IMG/VR virus record: IMGVR_UViG_3300029982_000009
Reading direction: 5' to 3' (one strand)
Origin: a virus
Lineage: Duplodnaviria; Caudoviricetes
DNA: 64,000 nucleotides
Of the stretch, positions 3,741 to 61,280 are shown one piece after another. Positions within the stretch are counted from its first letter, which is position 1, and each line of letters starts with the position of its first letter. The notes under the pieces were generated by a model. That model did no database searches. It saw only the letters and a list, made by a program, of their open reading frames with translations, and was not told the origin of the DNA. The translations under genes and the position numbers were made by a program.

Positions 3741-4417
3741 GTTCTGTTTCAAGGTTGCAAAACATTGCTGCAAATATGAAAGTTTCTTCGTATATTCATC
3801 GAATGGAAACAAGCCTTGAAGATTGTATTCAGCATGATGAAGGCCGTATCGGTAAATCTCATGTTGGCCGAGCTGTAATTTGCCGCCAATTTCTTAAGAG
3901 TGGCAGGTTGCAACTTGATCCCAATAAAAAGATTGTGCTTGTAGATGTAGACGGTACCCTTGCCAATTCTACTGGAATCCGTAGTCCATACGATGAAGAT
4001 GCAGTAGGGAAGGATAGAGTTTATCCATTGATTGCTGCGTGGGTTCGTGAATTAGCTAAAGATCATACAATTTTAATTGTATCAGGCAGACATTCTACAT
4101 GCGGAGACGCGACTATTGCTTGGCTAAATTTTTATCAAATCCCATTTGATCATATCTTTATGCGGCACGGTTGGGATTCTAGACATGACTATATCGCAAA
4201 AAGTGAAATTCTCAACGAATTACTCGGCCTTGTGTCAAAGGAACAAATTCTAATGGCAATCGACGACAGATATCAGGTTGTTGAAAAAGCATGGCGGGCC
4301 AACGGTATTAAGTGTATTCCTGTTCGGGGAACTCCTCATCATTCATTAACCTGCCCAAATTTGGGAGTTGATTCGAAAAAAACCTGTGAACATTGCGGCG
4401 CGATTGGAAATTTCTAA
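3449..4417 (+). CDS. pseT: polynucleotide 5'-kinase/3'-phosphatase (T4 PseT-like)
   Basis: GESGSGKST Walker A + RINRDDIR kinase domain; VDVDGT HAD motif, SGR, IDDRYQV. Confidence 0.9.
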   Translation: MQQHKSPATNNPHIAGAVTLTIVQGESGSGKSTWAREYIDQHRERKIVRINRDDIRSMLHSSDTSLEKDVAAVEELQIRHFLSNGYSVLLDNTHLSLSSVSRLQNIAANMKVSSYIHRMETSLEDCIQHDEGRIGKSHVGRAVICRQFLKSGRLQLDPNKKIVLVDVDGTLANSTGIRSPYDEDAVGKDRVYPLIAAWVRELAKDHTILIVSGRHSTCGDATIAWLNFYQIPFDHIFMRHGWDSRHDYIAKSEILNELLGLVSKEQILMAIDDRYQVVEKAWRANGIKCIPVRGTPHHSLTCPNLGVDSKKTCEHCGAIGNF

Positions 4418-4481
4418 ATAAGAAACCCGCTAATTAATTGGAAATCGGACGAGTATGGTATTTAAGAAATAAGGAGTATTT

Positions 4482-5582
4482 ATGGCAATTTGGGAAACCT
4501 TTGCGACAAAGATTGAATTACTGCCCCACCCTAATGCAGATCGTATGCAGATCGGTCGAGCCGGCAAATTTCAAATTGTTGTTGGTATGGGACAATATCA
4601 AAATGGGGATGTGATCGTATTCGCGCCGGAGAGAGCAATTCTGCCGGATTCGTTGAAAAGCGAATATGTTAATTCAGCAACCGGTATTAGTTATCTAACC
4701 GGTTCCGAACATAATCGAGTTAAACAGGTTCGTCTGCGTGGAGAATTAAGTGAGGGAGTAACTCTGCCAATTGATTGGGTTCTTGCCACCGTCCCCGAAT
4801 GGAATGCGGTTGAGAATATCCCTCTTAATGTGGATATTTCAGAAAAATTAGGAATCTATAAATATCAGCCGGTAATTCCATATAATATGTCGGGAATTAT
4901 TAATTCATTTGACTCTGTTAATTTCGGGTCCCGAGCAGCCCACCACGACGTTGAACAATTTCGACTGTTTGCAGATGAATTTGTATTTGGTGAGGATTGT
5001 ATTACTTCAGAAAAAATTCACGGTTCTCAGGGAAATTTCTATTTTTCAAAGACAGGAGAAATCGGGGTAACTAGCAAGGGGATGAATGAGCGAGATCAAG
5101 TAATAGAGCGCTCGGAAAAGAATCTTTACTGGCAGGCATTAGAAAATTCTGGGTTAATCAACCTAGTAAAATGCGATCTATTAGAACCCGAAAGTATTGA
5201 TCTTAAAAATTTTGATGTTCAGTTTGTGGGGGAAGTTATTCCTTGTCAGCCTGGATATTCGTACGGACAAGATAAGCCGACAATTAAACTTTTTAGAATA
5301 CGAATCGACGGACGAGAGTTATCGGTTGATGAAATCGAAACAACGTTCGGTAAATCGTTTATTGAAAAGTATTGGGTGCCAATTTTATATCGTGGACCGT
5401 TTGATCCCAGTGTTTTTGAAAAACTAAGCGGCGGAATGGAAACAGTATCCGGTAAAAGTTTGCATATTCGAGAGGGAATTGTAATTACTCCCGCAGTGCC
5501 AAGAGTCGCCCGCCGTGGTTTTAATCTTTCGTTGAAATTTTTGAATCGAAAATATAAATCTTCAGATGAGGACCTGTCCTAA
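4482..5582 (+). CDS. RNA ligase, DRB0094-like family
   Basis: PHPNADR N-terminus, RLRGELSEG, SEKIHGS (motif I), VGEV, REGIVI motifs. Confidence 0.85.
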   Translation: MAIWETFATKIELLPHPNADRMQIGRAGKFQIVVGMGQYQNGDVIVFAPERAILPDSLKSEYVNSATGISYLTGSEHNRVKQVRLRGELSEGVTLPIDWVLATVPEWNAVENIPLNVDISEKLGIYKYQPVIPYNMSGIINSFDSVNFGSRAAHHDVEQFRLFADEFVFGEDCITSEKIHGSQGNFYFSKTGEIGVTSKGMNERDQVIERSEKNLYWQALENSGLINLVKCDLLEPESIDLKNFDVQFVGEVIPCQPGYSYGQDKPTIKLFRIRIDGRELSVDEIETTFGKSFIEKYWVPILYRGPFDPSVFEKLSGGMETVSGKSLHIREGIVITPAVPRVARRGFNLSLKFLNRKYKSSDEDLS

Positions 5583-5914
5583 TGATTTCTGAAGATTTAT
5601 ATAATACAACAATTAAAAATCTTCTTGCCATTAAGACGTATGCGGCAACGTTGTACGATGAATGGCAAGATGTACTTATCGAAGAACTAGGCACTGGATT
5701 AGTTAAACCGTCTTTTTGGGCCAGGAGTTCAAAACAAAAAGCAAACGTACTTTCTATGGAATTATTAGAGTCGGATATTTATATTAATGCTCGAAAATCA
5801 GGTGCGTTAAAAATTCCTGTGTCCTATCTTAACAATCCGGATTGGAAAAATTGCCTTCGGAAGAAATTAAAACGACGGAAAAATAAATTACTGATTGATA
5901 AATTGTCGGAGTAG
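5582..5914 (+). CDS. hypothetical protein, paralogue family B (ends LIDKLSE)
   Basis: LYDEWQ and C-terminal KLSE shared with 5917 and 6469. Confidence 0.75.
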   Translation: MISEDLYNTTIKNLLAIKTYAATLYDEWQDVLIEELGTGLVKPSFWARSSKQKANVLSMELLESDIYINARKSGALKIPVSYLNNPDWKNCLRKKLKRRKNKLLIDKLSE

Positions 5915-5916
5915 GT

Positions 5917-6243
5917 ATGATTCCCGTAGAAGTAGTTAAAATTGTTGCCGAAAATACCGAGTTAATCGAAAAAGAGATTGAACACATTTACGCCGAATGG
6001 CAGGCAATTAAATTGAAAAATTTAGGATATACCTGGGGGTTTGGACGTCGTTCAAAAGATACAACTATTCGACCAGTATATAATCGTAAATGGAATTTAA
6101 AATTTATCACTGTTAATAGTGGTCAGGGATGTGAATTTATTTTTCCTACTCGATGGATAAGCGATGAAAATTGGAAAATTGAAGCGATGCTCGGTATAAC
6201 CAACGAAGTAAATCTAGTATTGATTGAAAAATTATCGGAATAG
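5917..6243 (+). CDS. hypothetical protein, paralogue family B (ends LIEKLSE)
   Basis: IYAEWQAIKLKNLGYTWG aligned with 6469 ORF. Confidence 0.75.
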   Translation: MIPVEVVKIVAENTELIEKEIEHIYAEWQAIKLKNLGYTWGFGRRSKDTTIRPVYNRKWNLKFITVNSGQGCEFIFPTRWISDENWKIEAMLGITNEVNLVLIEKLSE

Positions 6244-6252
6244 GAAAATATT

Positions 6253-6468
6253 ATGACTTTTGACCCATTACAACTCGATGCACAATTACAGAGATGCGCT
6301 CAAGAACTACCCGAAGGCTACCGCATAGTCATACAAGTCGAACGGGATTCTGGGTGGGTTAATCTTATGGATCCGAATGGAGATTATGTCGAATACCCAT
6401 GCAATAATGAATATGGGTTAATCGAACAGGTAATGGATGCACTGGAATTTTCAAAAAGTTTGGTGTAA
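6253..6468 (+). CDS. hypothetical protein
   Basis: 71 aa ORF with AGGA RBS in tightly packed operon. Confidence 0.7.
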   Translation: MTFDPLQLDAQLQRCAQELPEGYRIVIQVERDSGWVNLMDPNGDYVEYPCNNEYGLIEQVMDALEFSKSLV

Positions 6469-6807
6469 ATGTGTTTACTAGAAAAACGAGTTCTTGCTGC
6501 AATACGCGATCGTGTAGAGATAGAAAACGAAATTGCCATAATTTATGACGAATACCAGCGGTTAAAACTTAAAATTTTAGGATATACCTGGGGAAACGAT
6601 GGTAATTATGGAACAACCTTTACGCAGGTCTCTGAGGTGTGCATAATAGAATCGATCACTGAAAAACATATCACTATTAACCCAAATAGATATAACGAAT
6701 TAGTAATGCCAACCGTTTGGGTAAGTAATCCGAATTGGCAGGATGAAGCGACAGAAATTTTAAAGGAAATACTAGGTCATAATTTGCTTGAAAAGTTATC
6801 TGAATAA
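6469..6807 (+). CDS. hypothetical protein, paralogue family B (ends LLEKLSE)
   Basis: IYDEYQRLKLKILGYTWG aligned with 5917 ORF. Confidence 0.75.
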   Translation: MCLLEKRVLAAIRDRVEIENEIAIIYDEYQRLKLKILGYTWGNDGNYGTTFTQVSEVCIIESITEKHITINPNRYNELVMPTVWVSNPNWQDEATEILKEILGHNLLEKLSE

Positions 6808-6816
6808 TGCTATAAT
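6788..6816 (+). promoter_or_regulatory. sigma70-type promoter, probably leaderless
   Basis: TTGAAA-N17-TATAAT, ATG 6 nt downstream. Confidence 0.65.
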
Positions 6817-6822
6817 AAAACT

Positions 6823-7194
6823 ATGAAAACTTGTTCTTCAATTACCGCAAATATTTTCGTTGGCCTCAGAGAGGCATATTCCGATAAGATTCAGACATTG
6901 GATGCCGCTCGGGATATTTTGCATAACTATTGTGATTCAAAAGGTTTATGCGTATCGCTAACACCAACGGAATTTATCTATACTAGCTCGGCAGATAAAA
7001 ATATAGATGGATTTGAACCCGGATTTATCGTAGGCTTAATTAATTATCCCTTGTATCCATCAACACCAGAAAAAATTTACGAACATGCAAGTATTCTTGC
7101 TAAAGAGTTATTGCTAATGTACGGGGAATTAAAGGTAACGGTCATTATGGAAGATAAAACCATAACGATAGAAAAGAGCGACTGCGATGGTTAA
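6823..7194 (+). CDS. conserved phage hypothetical protein
   Basis: TPTEFIYT...EPGFIVGLINYP motif. Confidence 0.75.
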   Translation: MKTCSSITANIFVGLREAYSDKIQTLDAARDILHNYCDSKGLCVSLTPTEFIYTSSADKNIDGFEPGFIVGLINYPLYPSTPEKIYEHASILAKELLLMYGELKVTVIMEDKTITIEKSDCDG

Positions 7195-8287
7195 ACTAGA
7201 TCAAATTATGAATGTCGATATCTTAGAAGAATTAATTAAGAATCGATTTATCTCGAGAAAATTTCATTCAACATTTCCTCTGGCAATTTTGAATTATACC
7301 CAGATCGCTCAATTTAGCAAGGATTTAGTCTGGGGTCCCGAAATGAATTCTTGCCGAGGTCTAATTTACCGTACGGATACGACAGAAATTGTTGCTAGAC
7401 CGTTTGCGAAATTTTGGAACTTAAATGACGCACGACATCCCGAGACTCTAGAGATTAATCTTCCTCCTGGAGTTCCCCTGTTAACGACTAAAATGGACGG
7501 ATCGTTAGGCATACTGTATTCGTGGGACAACCAAAATTATGTAGCAACTCGTGGTTCATTTGAATCAGACCAGGCTCATTGGGCAACCGAATGGCTGCAA
7601 AAAAAGTACCCCCGATTAAAACTTCCGCGGGATTATACTCTGTTAACCGAAGTTATTTTTTCAGAAAATAGAATAGTCGTGCAATACGATTTTGAAGGCC
7701 TTGTAACCCTAGGCGCAATTCACAATGAAACCGGTAAGGAATTATCGCGTTCGGATTTAAAATCATACTGCATCGCGAATGAATTACCGTTGGTTAAAGA
7801 TCACGTTAAAGACTTAAAAACTTGCGTAGCAGAAAATATTCGAAATCAGGAAGGATATGTTGCAACATACTCAACTGGGTTCAAAGTCAAAATTAAATTT
7901 GAAACCTATTGCCAATTGCATCGAATTTTGACGGGATTAAATCCGCATACTATCTGGGAAATGCATCGAGACGGAAAAAATGAAGAACTTCTTGCTTGGG
8001 CAGCAGATGAAATTATCCCCACCGAATTTAAGGCCTGGTTGAATAAATGGAATTTACAATTAACCAATGATTACTACAAAATACTATTTGTGGCTCAACG
8101 AATTCTAGATCGTAAACCGAGTGGAGGTACACGAAAAGATATCGCTGCATTTTTCTTACAGACCGATCACAAATATTATGCATCAATTTTATTTGGGTTG
8201 CTCGATGGTAAAGATGTGTCCGAAACTATTTGGAAATTGATTGAACCTAAATCAACCGATACTTTCAGAGAAGATATTGAAATATAA
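7187..8287 (+). CDS. RNA ligase 1 (T4 RnlA-like)
   Basis: CRGLI, RPFAKFWN, TTKMDGSLG (motif I), LTEVI, EGYV, KVKIK motifs. Confidence 0.88.
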   Translation: MVKLDQIMNVDILEELIKNRFISRKFHSTFPLAILNYTQIAQFSKDLVWGPEMNSCRGLIYRTDTTEIVARPFAKFWNLNDARHPETLEINLPPGVPLLTTKMDGSLGILYSWDNQNYVATRGSFESDQAHWATEWLQKKYPRLKLPRDYTLLTEVIFSENRIVVQYDFEGLVTLGAIHNETGKELSRSDLKSYCIANELPLVKDHVKDLKTCVAENIRNQEGYVATYSTGFKVKIKFETYCQLHRILTGLNPHTIWEMHRDGKNEELLAWAADEIIPTEFKAWLNKWNLQLTNDYYKILFVAQRILDRKPSGGTRKDIAAFFLQTDHKYYASILFGLLDGKDVSETIWKLIEPKSTDTFREDIEI

Positions 8288-8298
8288 AGGAAAACTAT

Positions 8299-8345
8299 TA
8301 GATAGAAAAGCAGTAAGAGGTTAACTCTTACTGCTTTTCTATCTA
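8299..8345. terminator. bidirectional terminator between convergent operons
   Basis: 21 bp perfect arms TAGATAGAAAAGCAGTAAGAG / CTCTTACTGCTTTTCTATCTA, 5 nt loop. Confidence 0.85.
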
Positions 8346-8353
8346 GCAATCGT

Positions 8354-11300
8354 TTAATGACAATTGCTTAGTGTAATACTGCCATTGATTCCTAATGTAA
8401 TTATTGCACCCCCGCCTAAGGTCATTGCACAGTTTCCCGGCGTTGTTGTGATTATATATGGGGCAGCGGCAATTGCGGAATTATTATATCCAGAAGCCGC
8501 CGCTAATGCATTAATGGTTTTTGTTGTACCCACCAAAATACCACCCGTATAAACGGTAGAACTAGTAGTGGGCGTCGTGCCATCTGTTGTATAATAGATG
8601 ATCGAGCCAGGAGTTGAATCGGTAATTATAACTGTTTGTGTAGTAGTATATACGCCTGCTATTGGATTGAATATAGGAGTTGCAGTCGTGGACGTGATGT
8701 TAATAGTATAGACGGCCGAACTCGTTGAAGAGTTATTGTATCCAATTTTAGTAGCAATTGCATACAACGTTTGTGTCGTTGATACGGTAACAGAACCCGT
8801 TACTTGGGTAGCTCCTGTGCAAGTTGTGGTATTGCATCCAGTAAATGTACCGGTTGTATTATACCAGATTGTAGCACCAGATGTTCCACTAGAGATAGAC
8901 ACCGTTTGTACCGAAGTATACGTTGCTGTTCCCGGTGAAAAAGTTGGCGCACTCGCAGTAGGTAGGTTGATTACATATGCGGCGGTGGCTATCGCGCTAT
9001 TTGAGTATCCCGGAGCTATTGCAATTGCTTTTACTGTTTCTGATACAGTAACCGAAATAGCACCCGTGTATAGAGTTGAGGATGGTGTCGGGGTTGTACC
9101 ATCTGTCGTGTAATAGAGTATTGCCCCCGGGGTTGTACTTGCAATAGTAACAGATTGTGTTCCAACATATGTTCCCGCTCCGGGGGTTAATGTTGGGAGA
9201 GCAGCCGCAGGTAGGTTAATTGTATAGGCCGCGGAAGTTATTGCAGAATTAGTATATCCTGCGTAGGTAACAATAGCATAGAGGGTTTCCGACGATGCAA
9301 CTGATACCGTACCCGTTACTTGGGTTGCACCCGTGCAAGTTGTGGTAGTGCAGCCAGTAAATGTACCGGTTGTATTATACCAGATTGTAGCACCGGTAGT
9401 GGAACTACTAATTGTAACTAATTGAATAGAAGTATATGTTCCCGCTGCAGGAGAAAAACTAGCCGATGCTGCCACCGGTGTTCCAATAACAAAGGCTGCC
9501 GAGCCTACCGGACTGTTTGTATAACCAGACGCTACTGCAAGCGCTTGGATAGTCTCGGAAACTGATACCGAAATAGGCGTAGAGTATAATGATGATGCTG
9601 TTGTTGGAGTACTTCCGTCTGTAGTATAGTAAATCGATGCTCCCGGAGTGGTTGACGTAATAGCAACACTCTGGGTACTGGTGTAGGTCCCCGCCACCGG
9701 TGAAAATGTTGGGGTGACAGCAACAGGTAAGCCTGCACTATAACAAGATGCCGCGTTAAAAGTTAATGGAGATCCCGCATTACCAGGTGTTCCGCCCATT
9801 GCTGCATAGCAGGCCTGTGCAGGAATAAGAGCCGCATGGCCGCCAGGACCACTGCCGCCAGTAACATCCGGTCCAATAGCCGGATAAGAAAGTGTCGTAC
9901 CCCACCAAGATGGTTTAGCACTCAAATAGAATGACGCGGGTAGTGTGTGTGTAAGCCCAGTTTTCCATACGATTGCACTAGAAATATTTCCGTAGTTTCC
10001 GTGTAAGGTAGCACTAGAGTATGCCAGTGTCGAATCAGCCGCATTGCCCGGTGCTGTAACCCCATCGTCCGCCGCTTCAGAATAGCCGAAGGACCATCCA
10101 TATACAAGGCTATCATAACTTCTGTTAACAGGATATTGTACAGCGTCGGTTTGTCCGGTACCACTATTATAAGGCGTTACGCCTACTCCGGGTCCAGGAC
10201 CATATCCAATATTATTTTCTTGCTCAGGGCCACCGATTACATTGCCTAACGCATTATTTCCTATTGAAAGCGTGGAAGCCTGAAATGCTCTAGCTCCCTG
10301 AAATGGATTACAGGTATGTCCCGATGTTAATGCGCTACAAACCTGTAATGTACTTCCGGAGGTAACTGTATTACGCCCTGCTGCTAATGGATACCCATTG
10401 TCTGAACTGCCGATTACCCAGTTACGATATTCTGTATTGCGTGTACTAGATCCCCAAATTGAGTCGAGATCAATGGTTGTCAGCACATTCCCTTCAAGCA
10501 AGTTAAATTCTGGATTTGCTCCATGGAAATCGATACCACCTATCATAAAGTTAGGTGAATTTTGATCAAATTCGCCTAGAGTATAGTTATAGCTGATTAC
10601 GTTACCAGATGGCCCTCGTTCAATGACTATGCAATCATGTCCTCTTTCGCATATATTATTTTCAATTTTCATTTTTGAGGTGTAGAAATCGATTTGACCA
10701 GTCGAATCGTAAGTACCAGGCTGGTGGAAAATAGCGTTTGAGAAGTAGTTGTTGCTAACCTCTCCGCCGTAGCTGTAATGGAAATCAAAATAGTCTGCAT
10801 CGGTGTAATTTACCTCGACTCCGTGTACAAAACAATTTTCGCACATCGAACCAAGAACATCGACACCAACGCTTGTAGTTGTTCCTGCATTTGTCGTATA
10901 TATTTGCAGATTCTCTACTCCGGCTTGTATTGCTGACGGAGAAAATGGTGTTGCTAAGGGAGCGGTAGTTGTTCCTGATCCGTATAGTGTCCAGGTACAA
11001 GTTCCGTCGGAAGTTGTTGAAAAAGACCCTGTGCCGCTTGTGCAATTATAAGGTCCATTACCGCCTGAACCTGTAGGCGCCGCGGTTTCCTGATAGATGT
11101 TTCCACCATTGGTAACGTTCGCGCCAGGGTAATATGTATGCGACGTTGCCCAGCTAGGCAACGTGGACCCAAACGTCCAGTATAGCCCAGGTGAAATGGT
11201 GATTGTGGTCCCGCTCACGCCGGTTACTAGAACGGTCTGCCCACTTGACCTATAACCTCCATATACATCGCAAAAGTTGCAGAAGCCTTCAGTACCAGTC

Positions 11301-11869
11301 GAATTTACGTTGTTGCCAAGAGAGTTTAATTCTGTGACTGTGAGTAACTTACCAACTGAGATATTGGTAGCACTGGCTACCGTGACACTAGTAGATCCGG
11401 CCGTTAGTCCGCTAGTAACCGCAGTATCATTGGCTGTACTTGGGAATGAGGATGAGCCAAGGATAATCGCACCATTGCCGCTTGAACCTGTAAAATTCAG
11501 AATTGTTGAATTCGCGCCCTGCCCATTAAGGTAGCAGTAACTTGGAACCGTTAATGTACCAGCGATCACAAAAGTACCGGCAGCCAGATTAACATATTTC
11601 TCGGCTCCTACCGATCCACCGCAAGCGGCTAAAGCCGTGTTTATAGCTGAGGTTTGATCACTACCTGTAGATGTAATGGTGCTACCTGCTTGTGTTGCTG
11701 TAGGAATACCTCCCGGTATGCCTGCTACGCTCCAATCAACCGCGCATCCTGTTGGGGTTGCGCCAGTGCAAGTTCCTGATCCATATGGATAAAGTAGTCC
11801 ACTCCACGCTTGGGCGTGGACTACACAAGGAAGAAGCATGAATACTAGTGCTATGAGAAATCGTTTCAT
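8354..11869 (-). CDS. signal-peptide-bearing beta-helix/pectate-lyase-like adhesin with five chitobiase C-terminal (FN3-associated) repeats
   Basis: MKRFLIALVFMLLPCVVHA signal peptide; AINTAL..C...YVNL.AGTF beta-helix cap; repeats TPTFSP.AGTYT.TQ.V.I...TPGA.IYYTTDG.TP. Confidence 0.8.
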   Translation of the reverse strand: MKRFLIALVFMLLPCVVHAQAWSGLLYPYGSGTCTGATPTGCAVDWSVAGIPGGIPTATQAGSTITSTGSDQTSAINTALAACGGSVGAEKYVNLAAGTFVIAGTLTVPSYCYLNGQGANSTILNFTGSSGNGAIILGSSSFPSTANDTAVTSGLTAGSTSVTVASATNISVGKLLTVTELNSLGNNVNSTGTEGFCNFCDVYGGYRSSGQTVLVTGVSGTTITISPGLYWTFGSTLPSWATSHTYYPGANVTNGGNIYQETAAPTGSGGNGPYNCTSGTGSFSTTSDGTCTWTLYGSGTTTAPLATPFSPSAIQAGVENLQIYTTNAGTTTSVGVDVLGSMCENCFVHGVEVNYTDADYFDFHYSYGGEVSNNYFSNAIFHQPGTYDSTGQIDFYTSKMKIENNICERGHDCIVIERGPSGNVISYNYTLGEFDQNSPNFMIGGIDFHGANPEFNLLEGNVLTTIDLDSIWGSSTRNTEYRNWVIGSSDNGYPLAAGRNTVTSGSTLQVCSALTSGHTCNPFQGARAFQASTLSIGNNALGNVIGGPEQENNIGYGPGPGVGVTPYNSGTGQTDAVQYPVNRSYDSLVYGWSFGYSEAADDGVTAPGNAADSTLAYSSATLHGNYGNISSAIVWKTGLTHTLPASFYLSAKPSWWGTTLSYPAIGPDVTGGSGPGGHAALIPAQACYAAMGGTPGNAGSPLTFNAASCYSAGLPVAVTPTFSPVAGTYTSTQSVAITSTTPGASIYYTTDGSTPTTASSLYSTPISVSVSETIQALAVASGYTNSPVGSAAFVIGTPVAASASFSPAAGTYTSIQLVTISSSTTGATIWYNTTGTFTGCTTTTCTGATQVTGTVSVASSETLYAIVTYAGYTNSAITSAAYTINLPAAALPTLTPGAGTYVGTQSVTIASTTPGAILYYTTDGTTPTPSSTLYTGAISVTVSETVKAIAIAPGYSNSAIATAAYVINLPTASAPTFSPGTATYTSVQTVSISSGTSGATIWYNTTGTFTGCNTTTCTGATQVTGSVTVSTTQTLYAIATKIGYNNSSTSSAVYTINITSTTATPIFNPIAGVYTTTQTVIITDSTPGSIIYYTTDGTTPTTSSTVYTGGILVGTTKTINALAAASGYNNSAIAAAPYIITTTPGNCAMTLGGGAIITLGINGSITLSNCH
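8447..9726 (-). repeat. five tandem ~85 aa chitobiase/beta-hexosaminidase C-terminal-type repeats (A-B-A-B-A)
   Basis: protein repeats visible; 84 bp near-identical DNA copies at 8795-8878 and 9311-9394. Confidence 0.85.
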
Positions 11870-11917
11870 ATATTTAACCTTTTTTGCGGCACGCCGTACA
11901 TGTGTCGCCGAGTTAAC

Positions 11918-14900
11918 TTACCACCCTTGGAACTCCGCGCTCCATCCAGCACCGCCATCTCCGCCCGTTCCGGATGTCGTATAGGTTGCCGCCGTGTAGC
12001 CGGAACCGCCCGACGCCGTGCAAGAGGCCAAAGCGCCTCCGCTCCACGTCGGGGTAACCGTCCCGCCCGACCCTCCGCCACCCAGAATGTTGAAAGTTAC
12101 ATTCGTCCCTGTGCCGCATCCTGCGCCAGCCTGTACCACCGTGCAACTGGACAGCGCCCCGGAAGTGACGCCCAGTGTTGCTTTGGGCTGGCTCGTGCAG
12201 GTCCCGCTTGTTGCCGCAGCCTCAGGCACGGTAACCAGGCCCCCAGGACCACCAGCCGTGTAGATGGATGGCCAAGTCGAAACGGCAGCTTGCGAGGAAA
12301 GAACTACGACACCCCCGCCTCCACCTGATCCTGCTCCTGTAGAGTTTGCAGCAGGAGGTGCGCCGTATCCTCCACTCGCGTCAATGATGCCCGTGTGAGT
12401 GCCGTCTGTACCCGTTATCGAGGCGCACATCAGGATGACAGGTGCTCCACCATTTCCGGCTGCTCCCCCTGTGCTACCTCCCTGCTTGCCACCCCCGCCA
12501 TAGGAATATAGGCCATCCAGCCCAGCTCCCAAGGCAAGGAAATTGTGCTTAAGGCCGGAGGAAAGCGTACCTCCATTTCCACCGTTTCCGCCGTTTGCTG
12601 CTCCTGCCGCTCCACCGCCAGTCGTACCAATATTGGTAGCGTAGTAATAGGGTAGCCCAGCAGTACCGGCAGCAGTGCCACCACCCGACCCACCGCCACC
12701 GCTGCTATCCATCGGGTAGCCATTTCCATATCCAGCCATTGCGCCATTCGCTTCAATCGTCCCTGCAATCGTGCAGGCGCCGGATACGTGGACGATCAAA
12801 CCTGCCGCAGAGTTCACCGTCACCGTGTTGCCATAAGGAACGGTGAAGGTCGTGTAATTATACTCGCCGCTCATGTTGCCGCTGGCGTTGGTGTTCGAGC
12901 CATTTGATCCGTCGCCAAAATATTGCAGCCAGCCGGGGACGTTCGGACTCATAGCCGATCCGGTGGCTGCAACGGTGCAACTGCCCCCCAACGTGCAAGT
13001 CTGCCCATTTACCGTGGTCGAACTGTTGGCCAGCGCAGAGTTAGGTATCGCGCTGGCGATCACTGACAAAGATGGTGTAGAGGCAGAGTTGCTCACCGTT
13101 GGAACCAGCCAGGAAGGCCAAGTGCCCGCCGAAGCTGCAAAGTTTGTAACCGTGCCGAATGAAGTGCATCCGGTGCCAGAGGCGCTGGCTCCACTTGGCC
13201 CGAACGTATAGGTGCAAGATGAACCGGCCCCCGCGTTGCCCGTCGACCCGGAAGTCAGTTGCCAGCTTTGCGTCGCCGGGTTGTAGCCGAGAATGTCTTC
13301 CGCCTGCTTGGCCTGGGCGCTATTCCAGCCCTGCGCGTTCAGCATGGGATAGGTCGCATTCCATGCCGCGCACTGTGCGCTTGTGCCGCAGCCAACAACC
13401 ACCGCCCCCATCTTGCTTCCTCCGTTGCCCCCATAAGGTGGCAACCCCATGAACAGTCCATCGCGATGAGGGCCGGAAAGCACCATTCCATACGGCGTAG
13501 TTAGTTGGCCGCGTCCGGGGATATACCCTGTTAAACTAACCGCTGGGTAACCGTCATAAAGTGTCGGATCGTTGTTGTTTGCAAACTGGCCCTCGTAATC
13601 GTTACTCCCGAATTGACCGGCTGATTGGAAGTAGAAATTGGAATGCTGGCCGCCTTCTTGATAGTTATTGAAGCCGAAATTCAACCCATTGATCTTGATT
13701 CTGAAATAATGCGGCTGCTCCAGCGTATCCCCCGTGGCGAACGTACCGACAACCGGAGTCGTGACGATTGCCGATCCATCCACAGCTCCGGTGGCCCCGT
13801 TGTAGACATTTAGAGTTCGTCCTTGCGGGTAGATGTGATACGGATTATTGTTCACAGCCACCACCGGCGTCCCGGTAATGCCCGCACCTGCATTTAAAAT
13901 AGTGCATCCTGAGAGCGCGGTGCCTACCACTGTGGGATAGATCATCGGCGCGGAAGTGTAAGTGATGCCTGTAATCTGGATGGTAGGAGGCGAGTTTACT
14001 GTGTAACTTGTGCCGCCAGTCGCTGTGCAAGCAGTAACTGCGCCGCCGCTCACCGACACCGTAGCCGTACCGCCTGAGCCTGTCAAGGCTGGGGCATAGC
14101 CATAGGACCGCGTATTGATGGTGCCGTTCACTCCGGCGCCGTTGTAAATCGTCAATGTGTTTCCGCTGGCACTGGAAACAATAGGATATATCACCCGGAC
14201 AGTTCCGTCCAGCCCACTCTCTCCGCTGACGGCCATCCCGTTCGTCACACCCGGAACTACCCAATCGGCATCCATACCAAAGCCATAACCGGTAAGTCCG
14301 CCCGCAGCTACTGTCGAGTTATTTGTGAGAGGGTAATTCATCACATCCACGGTGATGTGCGTCCCGTCCGGCACTGCCGTGATATGAGAGCATTGCCAAC
14401 TAGGGTCCACCTTGTCGAACATGCAGACCGTCTGGCCGGTACTGAATCCTGTCGAACTGGCAACAGGGATCGTCACGTTGGACAGCGGCATGGTGTTCGT
14501 GCCGCCCGTTTGGGAGCCGGTGGTTATAGCCGCCGTGGTCGTCGTTGTGGCAGTTGTCAGGCCAAACGTTGAGTCCCAATTGGCTGCGCTGGAGCCGGTA
14601 AATGTGCCTGCACTGATGCCTGAGATATACCCTGCGTTGTAGCCATGCGTAACGTCAATCATGGCCAAGTCGTTCCCCCAGCTTCCGGTGACTCCCTGAG
14701 TCTGCGTGAGGGCAAATGTGCAGGTAGCTCCGCAGGTCTGTGTATTGAGCCTGCCCTCTGGAACATTCCCCGTCTCTCCCAGGCGTGAGCGCCATTCCAG
14801 GCCCTCGTTCTGTGCTAAACCTTGGCCCACACTAAAGGCTCCTGTAAGGAGCGGTATCGAGTCACCTGGCGCATAACTGGTCAAGCTGATGTTATGCCCA

Positions 14901-16222
14901 GCCTGCGAACCCGACGAATGCACCCACATCTGGGTAATCATAGTATTCAGACTGGTTTCATCCCCGTCAAAATCTCGCGTACCCCCGAAAACGGATTGTT
15001 GAAGATTAAGCGCGGCAGCAGGATGCGGAGTATTGCCGCTTCCGGCACTGGTAATCGTTTGAGCAAACAGGGGCTGGGCATAGTGCCGATTATCCCCAAG
15101 TGACATGCCACCATTACAAATCACCTGCGGTGGACCCCATCTATAATCAGTCACACAACCGCTAGTAGTTGTGGCGGCAGGCCCATTCACTGGAATGCCA
15201 TAATCTGTCGTATTTCCCATGCCCCAGGGCTGTGCTTCCGTCTGCGCATAGTTCGCGGGAGCCAGAATGGAACAGGCAACCGACGGAGCGGCGAGGCACG
15301 CCAGAAACGAGTTGGCAATGCCGTTGTTCCCCGTTCCTGCTGGGGTTTGCTGCTGCGCTGCGTTGATCTGGCCGTTCGTAGTGCCAGCCACGACGGTGCC
15401 TGGGAATGTGCCATTGCCAGTGGACCCGCCCAGGGTAATAGACGGTGCGCCGGTGCCAACGCTTAAACCTCCTGGGAGCGTGTTTAATTGTGATGGTCCG
15501 CTACCAGTCTGTGCTCCGTTTGTCATCGCGTTCCAAGTTGTCGAGCCGCCTGGTCCGCATCCAGTGCCGTCTGCTTTGGCATAAAGTCCTGTGCAACTTC
15601 CGCTTGCCCCTCCAATAATTACTGGGTTCACTAGTCCGGATCCTAGAGGTCCAGAGAATAAGGCCTCACCGCCTGAATTATACATCGTTAATAACGGGGT
15701 ACCGGAACCTATAATTATATTAGTAGCCTGGAAGTTACCCCCTGGTGTGGTTGACGTACCATTTGCAGGTAATGCAGCATTAGCGGTCGCTTGGGCGGCA
15801 GTTTCTGCGGTAATAGCTCTGGCGGTTTCACCTGAAAAAATAGTTCGTTCATCGGTTATCGATGTTATCACACTAGCATTTGTTAGAACAATCGCAACAG
15901 GAATATCGGTTACACCAAAATTCGTCGTTTTCACTGCGGGTACGCACGATGCCGAGGTATTAAGATAGATATAATTTAGGGATGAGGCAGTAAGTGTTAA
16001 TGTCCCTCCGCTATATATAAATATTGACCCTTGGCAGTTAACAGTTCCAGCCGATATTTCTGCTTGCAATCCTGTGCCAGCGGTAACCCAATACCCGGGC
16101 GCAGTACCGTTAGAATATTTTGCATTAAGCGCAGAAATTGGAGCAATTTGAGTCGCTGGATTCTGCGCAAGGCTAAAGGGGCCTATACAGGCTAACATTA
16201 TTGATAAAATTATTTTTCTCAT
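11918..16222 (-). CDS. signal-peptide-bearing Gly/Thr-rich tail-fibre-like protein
   Basis: MRKIILSIMLACIGPFSLA signal peptide; Gly-rich GGxGG C-terminus; overlaps baseplate wedge stop (ATGA); GC-rich body. Confidence 0.75.
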   Translation of the reverse strand: MRKIILSIMLACIGPFSLAQNPATQIAPISALNAKYSNGTAPGYWVTAGTGLQAEISAGTVNCQGSIFIYSGGTLTLTASSLNYIYLNTSASCVPAVKTTNFGVTDIPVAIVLTNASVITSITDERTIFSGETARAITAETAAQATANAALPANGTSTTPGGNFQATNIIIGSGTPLLTMYNSGGEALFSGPLGSGLVNPVIIGGASGSCTGLYAKADGTGCGPGGSTTWNAMTNGAQTGSGPSQLNTLPGGLSVGTGAPSITLGGSTGNGTFPGTVVAGTTNGQINAAQQQTPAGTGNNGIANSFLACLAAPSVACSILAPANYAQTEAQPWGMGNTTDYGIPVNGPAATTTSGCVTDYRWGPPQVICNGGMSLGDNRHYAQPLFAQTITSAGSGNTPHPAAALNLQQSVFGGTRDFDGDETSLNTMITQMWVHSSGSQAGHNISLTSYAPGDSIPLLTGAFSVGQGLAQNEGLEWRSRLGETGNVPEGRLNTQTCGATCTFALTQTQGVTGSWGNDLAMIDVTHGYNAGYISGISAGTFTGSSAANWDSTFGLTTATTTTTAAITTGSQTGGTNTMPLSNVTIPVASSTGFSTGQTVCMFDKVDPSWQCSHITAVPDGTHITVDVMNYPLTNNSTVAAGGLTGYGFGMDADWVVPGVTNGMAVSGESGLDGTVRVIYPIVSSASGNTLTIYNGAGVNGTINTRSYGYAPALTGSGGTATVSVSGGAVTACTATGGTSYTVNSPPTIQITGITYTSAPMIYPTVVGTALSGCTILNAGAGITGTPVVAVNNNPYHIYPQGRTLNVYNGATGAVDGSAIVTTPVVGTFATGDTLEQPHYFRIKINGLNFGFNNYQEGGQHSNFYFQSAGQFGSNDYEGQFANNNDPTLYDGYPAVSLTGYIPGRGQLTTPYGMVLSGPHRDGLFMGLPPYGGNGGSKMGAVVVGCGTSAQCAAWNATYPMLNAQGWNSAQAKQAEDILGYNPATQSWQLTSGSTGNAGAGSSCTYTFGPSGASASGTGCTSFGTVTNFAASAGTWPSWLVPTVSNSASTPSLSVIASAIPNSALANSSTTVNGQTCTLGGSCTVAATGSAMSPNVPGWLQYFGDGSNGSNTNASGNMSGEYNYTTFTVPYGNTVTVNSAAGLIVHVSGACTIAGTIEANGAMAGYGNGYPMDSSGGGGSGGGTAAGTAGLPYYYATNIGTTGGGAAGAANGGNGGNGGTLSSGLKHNFLALGAGLDGLYSYGGGGKQGGSTGGAAGNGGAPVILMCASITGTDGTHTGIIDASGGYGAPPAANSTGAGSGGGGGVVVLSSQAAVSTWPSIYTAGGPGGLVTVPEAAATSGTCTSQPKATLGVTSGALSSCTVVQAGAGCGTGTNVTFNILGGGGSGGTVTPTWSGGALASCTASGGSGYTAATYTTSGTGGDGGAGWSAEFQGW

Positions 16223-19200
16223 GAAATCCTCAAATTAAGATTGTTTAGACTAGTTACGACAGAGATATTTTTTACTGTAGCCGCTGATATAAAAATTTCA
16301 TATGGGTTGCAGACAATTTGCTCTAACGCACCATACGAAAGATTTCCTGCATTTGGAACTAGATGAACCGCATTAATAATATTGGTCATATTCGACAAAA
16401 TATAGTTAGATAGTTGTGCCCAGAAAAATGTTTGGCCAAAATTAAAATTACCAATTGTAAAAAAATTATTTACAAGAGTAATAATTTGGCTTGCAATTTC
16501 GCCGGCACCCACTGCACTATTTGGGTTTGCTACGGCCACAAATGTTGCCTGAACCGAGGGGTCGGCTTTATCACCAAAAAGTGGAACAAACTGAGCCGAA
16601 TTAAAAATTAATTCATCAGATACCATTTTGTAATTATTAAGATCATTAAAATCGTTTGATAGCGTCTCGGTTGTTGGTGGTGTTGGTAATGCTATTTGTC
16701 CCGTTTGATCTGTTATGTATTGTTGATATGCGGTAGCATAACTTGATTCGAGACAATACATATCTATAATGTTCGACGGACTAGGATCTATTCTACGATT
16801 ATCAGACGCATTATGCTGATATTGAAATTTTAAATTTTGTCGTCCTACATAATACGAATATGTTAAAGTACTTCCTGGCTGATTAAGTGTTGTTTTAGTT
16901 GCTAAACTCCCAACCCTTGATATCTGATAAAATTGAAGAGTTGAGAGGCAAAAAATAATTGCTCCATTTGCATACGAGTATAAATTATTATTTATGTCCG
17001 TGGGTAAATTAACAACAACTACCTGATTAGCTCCAGAGCTTATTAATTTTGTAGTAGATTGCGAGTTATCGGTTACTAAAAATATAAAATTACTATCAGA
17101 CACACAATCTTTAAAGAAAAAAGGGTCAGTGGGAATACCAGTATATGCTAGCCCTGCATATTGAATTTGCACCCTACTATTATCAATTAAACCATTAATT
17201 TCATCAACGACTGCGTAAACATCTACTGATATATCGTTCGGTAATCCGAGGTTAACGGCAACGCCGGGCGCACTGTTAGTTTCTAAGATTATTATCTGAT
17301 CGGTTAGTGTAGACGCGTTGGTTGGATCGTATACCTTAGCATTAGGATCAAAATAAAAGGTTGTTTGCTGTTCAGATCCAAAATAATAGGCATTTGATTG
17401 TTGATATACAGTAAAAGTTGTAGTACTCGTTGGTACGAACGCCAATAGCCAATCGTTTGTATTAATCGCCGCTGGACTCATCGGAGCAATAAACTGGGAA
17501 CCATAAATTGCTGGGCTAAAATTTAATGGTAATGTGTTATCTAAACTCCATGAAAGAGTGTATGAATTATATGATAGAGCTACCGCATTTCCATTAGTTA
17601 AATAGGTGATTAATTTTTGAATTAAATTACTCGGTAATACGGGAATGTATAATGGTAAAATGCCGGTTAATAATGCCCCGGTAGGAATTTTTTGCGATAG
17701 TAAAATTGCTCCACTACCGTCAACATTTATCCCATTCATTGAGATCGAGTTTCCGATGCCAGCCGAATCAGCAGAAGTAATAGCCGCATAAATTATAGAT
17801 TTCTGATTCAATAATTGGGAAGACGAAGTGATTAGATTATTGTTAATGTCAAAAAATTGACCAGTGGGAGCGGTAAATTGTAATAATGATCCAATTTTCA
17901 GAATTGATGAATGCGAGACGGGCGCGAAACGTCCATCGTTTATTGTAATTAGATTGCCGGTGGCAACATCACTTATCCATCCAGAGCTAGAAGTATTGTC
18001 AGTTAACACTAAATTCCAGGCGGTCGCTGCCGAGGGAATAGTGATTGGATAATTACTGGGATTAAGGACAAACGACAGCGTATTATTAGACGATATTAGC
18101 GAGGTTATCTGACTTTCTACAATTGTTGCTAAATTATTTTGATTTGCATAGGTATAATTATTTGTTATAACTGACGGATCTGTATATATAAAACCATCGT
18201 CACAAAAAACATTTGTGCTACTAAATTTTCCAGTTGGATCAATTACATCGAGATATCGACTTACTCCGCTAGCCGTCCTATTGATTGCTTTTAATTGTAA
18301 AATATTGCTATATTTTGTAAAGGGAAAAGAGTTATAATCTTGACCATTTACCATTCTATTTTGCGAGTAGAAACTTTGGGGTGCCTTTAATTTAATATTT
18401 GCTAACGATTCGGTACCCGCACTATTACCTACGGTGTATTGTAAACTCGCATTGATTGTTAATAGCTGTGTACGATTTGTCTTACTCGTATAGTTAATAG
18501 GAAAAGATAAATTGGACATTTCTGAAGGATTAATTCTATATGTTAGCCCATTAGATGAACGAGTAAAGCATATAAAATTACCTTGAGGAATTGCTCCAAA
18601 AACACCGTCACCGAAGATTAAAGTAATAGCATCGTTGATTTGATTAGTTACAGAAAAAATTGTTTGCTGCTGCGATGGAAGATTATTGAAAGCTGTATTT
18701 TCTCCGTAAATTGTTTGTACCTGAGTCCATTCTGTAATTGTTCCGTCTGTATTAAGTTGATATAGCCATACATCCGAGTTATTAACGCCGGTTTGGGATA
18801 AATTGATAGATGTATTAGGTAACCCAGATGCAATACTAAAAGTTTGCGACGACAATGTTCCCTGTTTAAAATAGAGAAAATACCCCGTATTTTGGCTAGC
18901 AAATCCTAGTCCATCATTTTCATAAAGAAGATTAAAAGTAGAAGTGTGTTCGGGGTCGATTTCATATATAAATGTTTCGCCAACAGAAGTAGGGTTAACT
19001 ATTTCAAAATTTGTACTTGAACTATTAATAGATGCTGTGAATGCATATGGCGGCGCCTGTCCTGCCGACGAAGACAAGCCGTATTCTGAATAATTAATTC
19101 CATTAATTACATTTGTATTACCAGGATTGCCAATGGTTTGAGAACTAATTAAAACTGCATTGATAATAGTATTCCACTGATCTTGCCAGTTTCTATTAGT

Positions 19201-19641
19201 GCGATCATTCCAATTAATTGTTATTCCATTAAGATTATTTCCTAGCGAATCATATACATTATCGTTAACAGAAAGACTATTTATTTTTAGATAGCCATTT
19301 GCAGCTAAATTTCGACTCGGAATATAATTAACAAGATTAGCCAGATAATTAATAGAATTTCTACTTTGCGCAGTAGGAAGAAAGTTTTCTCTCGCATTCA
19401 TATCATAACGAAAGGACATACTTTGTCCCATAAATGCAATTAGATCAATTAATGCCGTGAACTCGCTGCTTTCAATATAATCATTGAAATTTTCTGGATT
19501 TTTTAGTTGCAAATAATTTATGAACGATTTTCGTAGTGTGGAAAAATCGTACGACGCGAGATTCGGGCTGCCCATAGAAGTATAGAAAGCCTGCCAATCT
19601 TGAATGCCAAAAGCCGTTGTTGCTTGCAGTGATGTTCCCAT
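16219..19641 (-). CDS. baseplate wedge subunit (gp6-like)
   Basis: YDFSTLRKSFINYL...FNDYIESSEF.ALIDLIAF.GQ...FR.DMNARENFL.TA N-terminus; ES...IK..AP..F.SQNRMV...DY. Confidence 0.85.
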   Translation of the reverse strand: MGTSLQATTAFGIQDWQAFYTSMGSPNLASYDFSTLRKSFINYLQLKNPENFNDYIESSEFTALIDLIAFMGQSMSFRYDMNARENFLPTAQSRNSINYLANLVNYIPSRNLAANGYLKINSLSVNDNVYDSLGNNLNGITINWNDRTNRNWQDQWNTIINAVLISSQTIGNPGNTNVINGINYSEYGLSSSAGQAPPYAFTASINSSSTNFEIVNPTSVGETFIYEIDPEHTSTFNLLYENDGLGFASQNTGYFLYFKQGTLSSQTFSIASGLPNTSINLSQTGVNNSDVWLYQLNTDGTITEWTQVQTIYGENTAFNNLPSQQQTIFSVTNQINDAITLIFGDGVFGAIPQGNFICFTRSSNGLTYRINPSEMSNLSFPINYTSKTNRTQLLTINASLQYTVGNSAGTESLANIKLKAPQSFYSQNRMVNGQDYNSFPFTKYSNILQLKAINRTASGVSRYLDVIDPTGKFSSTNVFCDDGFIYTDPSVITNNYTYANQNNLATIVESQITSLISSNNTLSFVLNPSNYPITIPSAATAWNLVLTDNTSSSGWISDVATGNLITINDGRFAPVSHSSILKIGSLLQFTAPTGQFFDINNNLITSSSQLLNQKSIIYAAITSADSAGIGNSISMNGINVDGSGAILLSQKIPTGALLTGILPLYIPVLPSNLIQKLITYLTNGNAVALSYNSYTLSWSLDNTLPLNFSPAIYGSQFIAPMSPAAINTNDWLLAFVPTSTTTFTVYQQSNAYYFGSEQQTTFYFDPNAKVYDPTNASTLTDQIIILETNSAPGVAVNLGLPNDISVDVYAVVDEINGLIDNSRVQIQYAGLAYTGIPTDPFFFKDCVSDSNFIFLVTDNSQSTTKLISSGANQVVVVNLPTDINNNLYSYANGAIIFCLSTLQFYQISRVGSLATKTTLNQPGSTLTYSYYVGRQNLKFQYQHNASDNRRIDPSPSNIIDMYCLESSYATAYQQYITDQTGQIALPTPPTTETLSNDFNDLNNYKMVSDELIFNSAQFVPLFGDKADPSVQATFVAVANPNSAVGAGEIASQIITLVNNFFTIGNFNFGQTFFWAQLSNYILSNMTNIINAVHLVPNAGNLSYGALEQIVCNPYEIFISAATVKNISVVTSLNNLNLRIS

Positions 19642-19646
19642 ATGAT

Positions 19647-19652
19647 TATTTA
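19647..19652 (-). promoter_or_regulatory. late promoter TAAATA, 5 nt before ATG
   Basis: TAAATA-N5-ATG, same geometry at several other late genes. Confidence 0.7.
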
Positions 19653-19707
19653 TGCTCTAGATACAAGACGGTTAATTCATTAATGAATTCGCGGCTGACA
19701 GGATGGG

Positions 19708-20082
19708 TTAGAAATCACTAGACAGTTCAGAATTGAAGTTCACTATTAGTTGATCCGTTTCATTTGTGTTAACATATTGAATAATTACTGTTACTGTAAT
19801 TGTATGTTGTCCCTGAGTAAGATCGAGACTTACTAATGTTATTCTAGGATCGTTATTAATGATTGAACTAATGTTAGCACTAATGTCATCTAAATCGGTC
19901 TGTGTTATATTATCGAATAATTTATCCCAAATTATGCATCCGAAATTAGGTTGCATAAGACGTTGCCCACGCCGAGTTTTTAACGCATTCAATAAATCCT
20001 GCTGAATAAGTTTCCTATCGGTAAGAACAAATTTCTTTTGAGCATCTGACGATACCGTTGAAAAGCCTGAATATATTGACAT
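19708..20082 (-). CDS. baseplate wedge protein (gp25/GPW-like)
   Basis: LI.QDLLNAL.TR.G.R.M.PNFGC.IWD.LFD ... DPRI motif. Confidence 0.9.
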   Translation of the reverse strand: MSIYSGFSTVSSDAQKKFVLTDRKLIQQDLLNALKTRRGQRLMQPNFGCIIWDKLFDNITQTDLDDISANISSIINNDPRITLVSLDLTQGQHTITVTVIIQYVNTNETDQLIVNFNSELSSDF

Positions 20083-20091
20083 AGTTTACCC

Positions 20092-20463
20092 TTACATTGT
20101 TGGCTTGCTAGCGGCAATCATTTGCGCTAATTGGGTTTTAGAATAAGACACGCCAGGTTGATTGGGTGATTGGGGATTATTAAGTGTTACGTTTCCGGTT
20201 TGATTATCCATGCCTGTTATTTTAAAATTGGTCGGCTGGTTTGTGGGCCCCGATGGCAATTGGATTGTAGATCCTCGAGTTGATAATTGCTGGGAAATTG
20301 CGGGATCAATTGGTTTTACCGCTTGAGAATTTGTGTTTATATTTGCAGAATTTGCCACGCCTGGGGTAGCTGTCTTTATATTGTTTTTAAGTCCAGATTG
20401 ATTAACCGACGGTGCTAACCCTGGTATTGACGGTAAATCTTCAAATAATTCTATTATTCTCAT
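20092..20463 (-). CDS. hypothetical late protein with MRIIELFE N-terminus
   Basis: TATAAATA and AAGGTG upstream; low-complexity Pro/Asn/Gln body. Confidence 0.7.
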   Translation of the reverse strand: MRIIELFEDLPSIPGLAPSVNQSGLKNNIKTATPGVANSANINTNSQAVKPIDPAISQQLSTRGSTIQLPSGPTNQPTNFKITGMDNQTGNVTLNNPQSPNQPGVSYSKTQLAQMIAASKPTM

Positions 20464-20489
20464 TTATATCACCTTATTTGTATTTATAC

Positions 20490-40072: not shown

Positions 40073-40092
40073 ATTATTATCTCCTAATGTAT

Positions 40093-61225: not shown

Positions 61226-61244
61226 CCATTCCCTCACTGAAATA

Positions 61245-61273
61245 AGTGTATCAAAAATCAGATCACTTGTCAA
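61245..61273 (-). promoter_or_regulatory. sigma70-type early promoter
   Basis: TTGACA-N17-TACACT then TATTTCAGTGAGG. Confidence 0.8.
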
Positions 61274-61280
61274 CCGAAAA

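Follow-up and report, generated by a model that had tools for sequence, protein, structure and literature searches.

The two genes directly downstream of the baseplate wedge in a 64,000-nucleotide stretch of phage DNA (IMG/VR record IMGVR_UViG_3300029982_000009, the whole of which we call the window) encode large, cysteine-rich proteins, P0001 and P0002, whose N-termini have the form of Sec signal peptides. From comparison of their sequences we consider it probable that both would be exported by the host Sec machinery, cleaved just before a glutamine and oxidized in the periplasm, and that together they would constitute a kit for the host surface glycans that is freed when the cell envelope is opened.

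P0001 (1434 amino acids (aa); positions 11918-16222, minus strand) and P0002 (1171 aa; 8354-11869, minus strand), each taken at the longest possible reading of its open reading frame (ORF), lie exactly where the original prediction had put them. The gene before them, a gp6-like baseplate wedge gene (16219..19641, minus strand), has a 1140-aa product with 6 Cys and no signal peptide that matches phrog_10646 (E 1e-244). The coupling proposed between the wedge and the first of the two genes is also there: the TGA stop codon of the wedge gene lies inside the ATGA that begins P0001, and an AGGA is found 4 nucleotides (nt) upstream of the P0001 start. A sequence TAAATA before the P0002 start was considered as a late promoter and rejected, being too near the ATG to serve P0002. 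P0002 and an RNA ligase gene converge on a hairpin with a 20-bp stem and T-runs (8300..8344), which they share; its position 3' of P0002 makes P0001 and P0002 the final two genes of the baseplate operon. Genes near the wedge match gp25-like, gp5-like hub and further baseplate families, and the wedge protein itself aligns from end to end, at 31-34% identity, with the wedges of RaK2, K64-1, Atu_ph07 and other jumbo myophages. The best explanation of the window is an uncultured jumbo T4-like phage of the RaK2/Atu_ph07 type with a host among the peat Terriglobia (Acidobacteriota); this phage looks lytic.

The N-termini are those quoted in the original prediction. The signal peptide of P0001 (aa 1-19; 16166..16222, minus strand) consists of MRK, 13 uncharged hydrophobic residues and S-L-A before Q, and that of P0002 (aa 1-19; 11813..11869, minus strand) of MKR, again 13 uncharged hydrophobic residues, and V-H-A before Q; the homologues of P0002 keep a signal peptide followed by Q/L-W-S-G. 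Signals were judged by the n/h/c-region rules (a basic n-region, some 10-15 uncharged hydrophobic residues as the h-region, and a small residue at each of -3 and -1) together with their conservation. Both proteins have the features of Sec signals cut by signal peptidase I, and the Tat twin-arginine motif S/T-R-R-x-F-L-K is absent from their n-regions, MRK and MKR. One database gene call has an alternative P0002 start at Met11; since all of the homologues keep the full signal, Met1 is supported as the start. Among the approximately 86 ORFs of the window, P0001 and P0002 are the only real-looking genes with signal-like N-termini. They also stand out for their cysteines, with totals of 27 and 23, respectively, whereas every other ORF in the window has at most 7. 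One Cys falls inside each signal peptide and the number remaining in the mature protein is even, 26 for P0001 and 22 for P0002. The three paired motifs singled out in the original prediction are all present (CTGATPTGC at aa 34 of P0002, CLAAPSVAC at aa 309 and TCTLGGSC at aa 1075 of P0001). Short Cys-Cys gaps (3-41 residues) alternate with long ones, with p ~0.001 for P0001 and p <5e-6 for P0002 against random placement, as expected for sequential 1-2, 3-4 disulfides.

Comparison with relatives strongly supports the predicted export and periplasmic disulfide formation of both proteins. The relevant part of P0001 is its N-terminal module (N-module; aa 20-130; 15833..16165, minus strand), in which alignment, AlphaFold2 (AF2) and Foldseek identify a conserved mature N-terminus and a beta-sandwich with C63 and C93. 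A survey of relatives, suggested in the original prediction as a check, was carried out as an exhaustive HMMER search with P0001 aa 1-230 as the query, and it assigned at least 662 clusters (50% identity) to the N-module family at E <=1e-3. The match is almost always at the extreme N-terminus, in proteins of ~100 to ~1800 aa (the longest members known reach ~2600 aa), and no Pfam or PHROG name was found for the family. When 51 members are aligned, no variation is seen at Gln20 (the +1 residue), C63 or C93, and the best conserved stretch is the mature start (Q-Q/N-P-Q-T-Q-T-A-P, N-A-K-Y, G..P-G-Y). By the n/h/c rules a signal is present in 136 of the 141 members with complete N-termini, with Ala as the -1 residue in 112 and Gly in 18; the mature Cys count is even in 121 of the 141 (p 8e-19). 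That the signal has been kept so widely while the sequence drifts indicates selection for function. The Cys-parity test was confined to the family because the crude cleavage-site rule misplaces sites outside it, where the +1 residues are scattered; over the viral loci, Cys makes up 2.0% of the residues in signal-bearing ORFs as compared to 0.8% in the other ORFs (p 2e-14).

The family is found almost wholly in Acidobacteriota prophages or viral contigs: Acidobacteriota/Terriglobia metagenome-assembled genomes provide 69 of the 72 hits when genomes are sampled at species level, and the N-module is present on at least 90 contigs of IMG/VR. An instructive relative is a 381-aa prophage protein without a signal peptide (L153, 9825-10970, and L154), whose sandwich is that of the N-module (42% identity, hhalign probability 99.4). 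The two conserved Cys are missing along with the signal, and the N-terminus reads RTVLPRKG...NW..LD instead; thus, the signal and the Cys pair go together. The Sec export and periplasmic disulfides put forward in the original prediction are, then, supported by four features of the family, namely the retained signals, the invariant Gln at +1, the even Cys counts and the signal-less relative that has no Cys pair. As a separate observation, Gln at +1 also occurs in the cellular Terriglobia homologues P0006, P0008, P0011, P0013, P0015, P0017 and P0020 (for example ANA-Q, CFA-Q and LCA-Q). It looks like a Q-rule-like habit outside the Bacteroidota; the Q-rule paper makes no mention of Acidobacteria.

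P0001 has the structure of a chimera between this phage N-module and a secreted protein of the host. The N-module is followed by a Gly/Thr-rich neck (aa 131-280; 15383..15832, minus strand), with a Cys pair at 210/222 and a recombination joint at its end, and then by the body (aa 281-1434 plus the stop codon; 11918..15382, minus strand), which matches the entire mature form of a chromosomal Terriglobia secreted protein. This alignment, with aa 21-1173 of P0006, runs from end to end at 68% aa identity; it includes stretches of ~80 identical residues and, at the nucleotide level, 81% identity over 2082 nt. The P0006 gene lies on a 61% GC bacterial contig amid hemB, UDG, GH2/GH3 and pyruvate kinase genes, and P0017, a 44% relative of P0006, is encoded between frr and tyrA/trp genes. 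Such housekeeping neighbors indicate that the body corresponds to a chromosomal secreted Terriglobia protein that had a signal of its own. The GC content at third codon positions (GC3) follows the same division: it is 0.25 in the phage baseplate genes and 0.34 in P0001 codons 1-250, climbs to ~0.7 at codons 250-280, the joint, and is 0.59 in the body and 0.68 in the donor gene, with homology to the cellular protein beginning at aa 281. The GC3 jump and the donor alignment together imply that the P0001 signal is part of the phage's own, long-resident N-module and that the signal of the donor was discarded. By the same comparison the body appears to have been captured recently from the host. P0001 had no match in 50,697 phage records (tblastn) or in a PDB sequence search, and its only PHROG match is to a weak head-closure family, phrog_460 (E 5e-4).

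Structure prediction, another of the suggested checks, was informative for one end of P0001 and failed at the other. The AF2 model of the body (aa 280-1434, from a 15-row alignment) has a mean predicted local distance difference test score (pLDDT) of 42 and was left out of the fold searches, and the best ESM Atlas score for the body, 0.78, is under the usable range. For the N-module, modeled from the family alignment, aa 45-125 form a beta-sandwich with pLDDT >90, while confidence is low for the position of the conserved mature leader (aa 20-44). The best Foldseek matches in the PDB are the tail fiber of the cyanophage A-1(L) (8kec, E 1e-4), the receptor-binding protein (RBP) of the lactococcal phage p2 (2wzp, 2bsd and 1zru, E ~0.02) and Mtd of the Bordetella phage BPP-1 (1yu0-4, ~0.1); these matches to RBP folds have a probability of 1.0 and template-modeling scores of ~0.4-0.5. 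A further 17 matches with E <=1e-3 were obtained in BFVD, including proteins labeled 'Mtd N-terminal domain', 'RBP sandwich domain' and 'tip attachment protein J'. At the fold level only, the model thus predicts that aa 45-125 are the virion-proximal 'shoulder' of receptor-binding proteins; sequence homology to the p2 RBP, Mtd or the A-1(L) fiber is undetectable. These three proteins, like P0001, are modular, have an N-terminal sandwich and are encoded after tail genes. However, none of the three bears a signal peptide and their assembly is cytoplasmic, whereas P0001 adds a cleavable signal, a Gln-start leader and a Cys pair. P0001 has the architecture of an RBP in its location in the tail module, its constant N-module and its exchangeable distal part. 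The modeled fold and the gene position favor a receptor-binding protein. The sandwich alone was also matched weakly, twice (E 1e-7 and 2e-13), inside 902- and 2251-aa ORFs (144694-148955) of a complete jumbo phage (IMGVR_UViG_3300010429_000387, G006; 407 kb with terminal repeats), and these may be signal-less giant fibers with the same shoulder.

The position of the family gene is much the same in viral and prophage loci, directly after tail genes and on the same strand. In two jumbo relatives the upstream partner is a gp6-like wedge (68-69% wedge identity), and a 90%-complete 360-kb relative has its sole copy between the gp6-like gene and a gp7-like giant gene. Other upstream partners belong to gpJ-like and to PHROG 'tail protein', 'host specificity' and 'tail fiber' families, or to the phrog_349 structural protein. 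At more than 20 loci in prophages of Terriglobia the gene just upstream, its ORF overlapping or abutting, encodes a 221-aa fiber-like protein that is headed by the N-terminal peptide of the signal-less L153/L154 protein. Many prophage members (L022, L024, L025, L029, L031, L038 and others) have a conserved and unusually long n-region, MVK..N.EF+I.N., which begins right at the stop of this 221-aa gene. No homologue of the 221-aa family, or of a 165-aa family that also neighbors prophage members, was found in the window.

P0002 is, on the evidence of its homologues, a phage-borne branch of the host-type beta-helix glycanases, predicted to act on surface glycans of the host. Its first part (aa 20 to ~711; 9737..11812, minus strand) is a right-handed beta-helix domain of glycanase type with 8 sequential Cys pairs. 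The PF12708 match of aa 1-715 is borderline, its 27.1 bits only just clearing the cut-off of 27; the family is recognized in 17 of 33 homologues, and the P0002 profile matches the polygalacturonase 1bhe (E 4e-5). The C-terminal part with the stop codon (8354..9736, minus strand) holds five CHB_HEX_C_1/Fn3_assoc repeats (aa ~712-1134) and a 37-aa tail; PF13290 scores 190.6 bits and PF13287 131 bits, three stretches being called by the search and five recognized by eye and motif. A CxxxxC pair occurs in repeats 2 and 4, and the tail contains Cys 1147/1170. The PDB sequence search matched only CHB_HEX-type repeats, and in the 50,697 phage records, likewise, P0002 matched CHB_HEX_C repeats only and no fiber or baseplate gene; it has no recognizable virion-anchor domain. 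Among the cellular homologues (41-47% identical) are proteins of Terracidiphilus and of Dormibacteraeota, as well as fusions to PST flippases or Wza-type exporters, and these fusions identify them as enzymes of exopolysaccharide (EPS) clusters. The nearest relatives of P0002, with 62-64% identity, are on phage contigs and in tail modules. One of them is the last in a row of large tail genes before a lysozyme gene; the other, from a podophage-like contig, is preceded there by an SU10-type adaptor and by a beta-helix protein of 931 aa. The neighbors of these relatives with 1111, 931 and 155 aa carry signals and many Cys, and the adaptor has no signal. The GC3 of P0002, 0.34, suggests that its acquisition is older than that of the P0001 body.

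How do these proteins compare with known systems? The Klebsiella phages RaK2 and K64-1 (Alcyoneusvirus) and the Agrobacterium phage Atu_ph07 share with the window a homologous gp6-like wedge and, as far as that gene, the order of the baseplate genes. After it, however, they have a giant gp7-like structural protein without a signal peptide (none was seen on those N-termini), and homologues of P0001 and P0002 were not found in them; in turn, the gp7-like proteins of RaK2, Atu_ph07 and a closer relative have no match in the window. These three are jumbo myophages with a multi-enzyme adsorption apparatus (PMC10253068). The framing of the original prediction in terms of T4-type fibers was mistaken, as neither protein has homology to T4-type gp7-gp12 or gp34-37 in PHROG, Pfam or the 50,697 phage records, P0001 being a chimera and P0002 a predicted host-type glycanase. 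WceF of Pantoea stewartii, an exported tailspike-like beta-helix glycanase with a phage-type N-domain, acts on the bacterium's own exopolysaccharide (PMC7949094) and is the best model of what the P0002 relatives in cells may be, and also of a reading of P0001 and P0002 as exported proteins that are not on the virion. WceF is nevertheless the product of a cellular EPS-cluster gene and has a Tat signal, whereas P0001 and P0002 belong to a phage baseplate operon and have Sec-type signals with no twin arginine, and no sequence homology to WceF is in evidence.

Phage-encoded proteins that use the host Sec system are familiar from the spanins and the lipoproteins of T5 Llp/Cor type, and the pIII of filamentous phages is an exported, disulfide-bonded adsorption protein; inoviruses, though, assemble at the membrane and tailed phages in the cytoplasm. 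Some phage endolysins, including Lys44 of fOg44 and the signal-arrest-release endolysins, are also Sec-exported (PMC6116005). All of these share the use of host Sec with P0001 and P0002, but none is a fiber- or spike-like protein of a tailed phage. Prophages of Porphyromonas gingivalis encode signal-bearing, Q-rule proteins of unknown function whose cleavage exposes Gln, and these have been read as an adaptation to the host secretion system (PMC10367356); those prophages live in hosts of another phylum, Bacteroidota, and tail or fiber proteins are not named among them. Our literature searches returned no direct report of signal peptides on tailed-phage fiber- or spike-like proteins. P0001 and P0002 are best taken as phage receptor-binding or depolymerase modules with predicted export signals.

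A cultured acidobacterial podophage, Tunturi 2 (L254, PP885685; host Tunturiibacter), presents a similar picture. Within 9802-22744 of its genome, gp12, gp13, gp14, gp16 and gp17 have signals that end in A before Q. The signal-bearing proteins hold 10-34 Cys, and their annotations include 'tail fiber' for gp13, 'pectin lyase' for gp14 and 'virion structural protein' for gp17; the terminase, portal, capsid, scaffold, gp11, gp31 and gp32 have no signal, and the head and portal proteins are not Cys-rich. Tunturi 2 gp17 has CHB_HEX_C repeats in common with P0002, but nothing homologous to the N-module of P0001 was found in Tunturi 1 or Tunturi 2. Neither Tunturi 2 gp11-gp14 nor the spike candidates of L252 could be identified from PHROGs. 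The paper describing Tunturi 1 and 2 includes no virion proteomics and does not mention signals (PMC11924767).

Some other features of the window deserve mention. An RNA-repair set (PNKP-like, Rnl2-like and Rnl1/gp63-like ligases; 3449-8287, plus strand) converges on P0002. The gp63 of T4 is also a catalyst of tail-fiber attachment; the placement of a gp63-like ligase beside fiber-like genes could be either a coincidence or not. Farther away, a pair of Cys-poor proteins of 248 and 930 aa without signal peptides (39326-40072 and 40093-42885, minus strand) have fiber-like N-termini and no PHROG match; this pair is a candidate for the conventional cytoplasmic fibers of the phage. Finally, the genes at 45105-46283, 46632-47669, 60902-61540 and 62464-63108 have a GC3 of 0.49-0.58 against a phage baseline of ~0.25-0.3, and are probably further recent acquisitions from high-GC genomes; two of the four match PHROGs of unknown function.

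In the mechanism that we propose, P0001 and P0002 would be made as Sec precursors and cut by signal peptidase I before the Gln, and both would fold in the periplasm, where their cysteines would form sequential local disulfides. P0001 joins a constant part (signal, mature N-terminus and shoulder sandwich) to an exchangeable distal part, here the body of a host protein, and P0002 would be a branch of the host EPS-cluster glycanases to which five carbohydrate-associated Ig-like repeats have been added. The pair would make up an exchangeable kit, matured in the periplasm, for binding and cutting host surface glycans, and this kit would meet the particles and the outside only once holin and endolysin have opened the envelope. 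Several considerations weigh against such a scheme. Tailed particles are built in the cytoplasm, an exported protein could reach them only after the inner membrane has been breached, and we found no printed precedent. What the analysis establishes is the gene structure, the chimerism, the conservation of signals, the Cys statistics, the fold, the host range and the synteny; the export, the cleavage and the disulfides are what we infer from the n/h/c rules and from comparison, as we do the glycan targets and the particle-bound or free fate of the proteins, and the enzyme activity, too, is a prediction. Fiber-like genes without signals are present elsewhere in the window (39326-42885). In the close relative L166 the wedge is followed directly by the gp7-like gene, with no gene between, from which it follows that the family gene is not a core baseplate part and that its slot is accessory and variable. 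Moreover, phages of myo-, sipho- and podo-like type have one and the same N-module behind tail proteins that are unrelated to each other, and this sits uneasily with a single specific docking site.

There are two versions of what would become of the exported kit. In one, the phages of Terriglobia would send their receptor-binding fibers and spikes through Sec and have them mounted, after the holin breach, on particles that had been completed without fibers in the cytoplasm, an extracytoplasmic last assembly step that is not known for tailed phages. This is possible but rather doubtful; it is favored by the shoulder fold, by the slot after tail-tip or baseplate genes and by the constant-N/variable-C design, and also by the fact that T4 fibers and P22 spikes join finished particles on simple mixing. 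Were it so, P0001 might, tentatively, be a fiber docked at the gp6-like/gp7-like rim of the baseplate. In the other version, which we regard as quite conceivable though short of probable, the proteins would be exported and never be on the particle. They would be envelope remodelers, at work during infection or in lysogeny, whose cutting or masking of nascent exopolysaccharide or O-antigen within the periplasm would block superinfection and keep the progeny off the debris, and after lysis they would be active as free depolymerases; the RBP-like shoulder would then be a leftover or an oligomerization module, as in WceF, an exported cellular enzyme that has been able to retain a tailspike N-domain. 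The flippase and exporter fusions of the cellular P0002 homologues, which mark them as periplasmic EPS-processing enzymes, fit well with this, as do the missing virion anchor of P0002 and the single N-module behind unrelated tail proteins. So does the fact that the signal replaces the RTVLPRKG peptide of the signal-less form while, in many prophages, a separate signal-less 221-aa protein with that peptide is encoded just upstream, and that the genes of the receptor-masking lipoproteins (T5 llp, cor) adjoin RBP genes. On the other hand, a constant N-module with swapped bodies of up to ~2500 aa in a fixed slot is the architecture of receptor-binding proteins, the phage of the window looks lytic and has these genes translationally coupled to late baseplate genes, and in the podophage-like contigs and Tunturi 2 each large candidate spike or fiber directly after the adaptor-like gene carries a signal.

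Two more explanations dispense with export altogether. The signals could be unused, either a remnant of the capture or an element of folding or docking, with the proteins folding in the cytoplasm and assembling onto the baseplate like ordinary fibers. To our knowledge all tailed-phage fibers assemble in the cytoplasm, and as both bodies descend from secreted host proteins, the signal could be inherited baggage. We think this improbable, because the P0001 signal lies in the low-GC3 module of the phage and the signal of the donor was discarded at the joint; the signal has also persisted in nearly all of the diverged relatives despite sequence drift, and the even, sequentially paired cysteines, together with their loss in the signal-less relative, are those of oxidative folding. 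Alternatively, the region might be passenger host DNA or an assembly chimera with no role in the phage. Its GC content of 0.55-0.58 at 12-16 kb, versus ~0.36 in the rest of the window, and its nucleotide identity to a bacterial gene could be taken in this sense. Yet the arrangement of wedge, P0001 and P0002 was independently assembled from JGI and ENA peat samples, the joint lies within an intact ORF whose 5' part is phage-like, there are an ATGA overlap with the wedge and a clean terminator, and relatives carry family members in the same slot; such an origin is hardly credible.

Export of these proteins would bear on annotation, since signal-bearing ORFs after tail genes are now labeled 'membrane' or 'hypothetical', and on host prediction, since the N-module marks phages of the Terriglobia. 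The chimera is a sharp example of the recruitment of receptor-binding modules from the host, since an entire mature protein, with 81% nt identity to its bacterial counterpart, has been joined to the phage module. The cultured Tunturi phages make the question of export directly testable. If export does occur, some of the apparatus with which a whole group of soil phages recognizes its hosts would fold in an oxidizing compartment that the rest of the particle never meets. The textbook assembly pathway would then be longer by one step. It would also explain how secreted host glycan enzymes that depend on disulfides can be plugged onto a fiber module and how the fibers remain stable in acidic peat.

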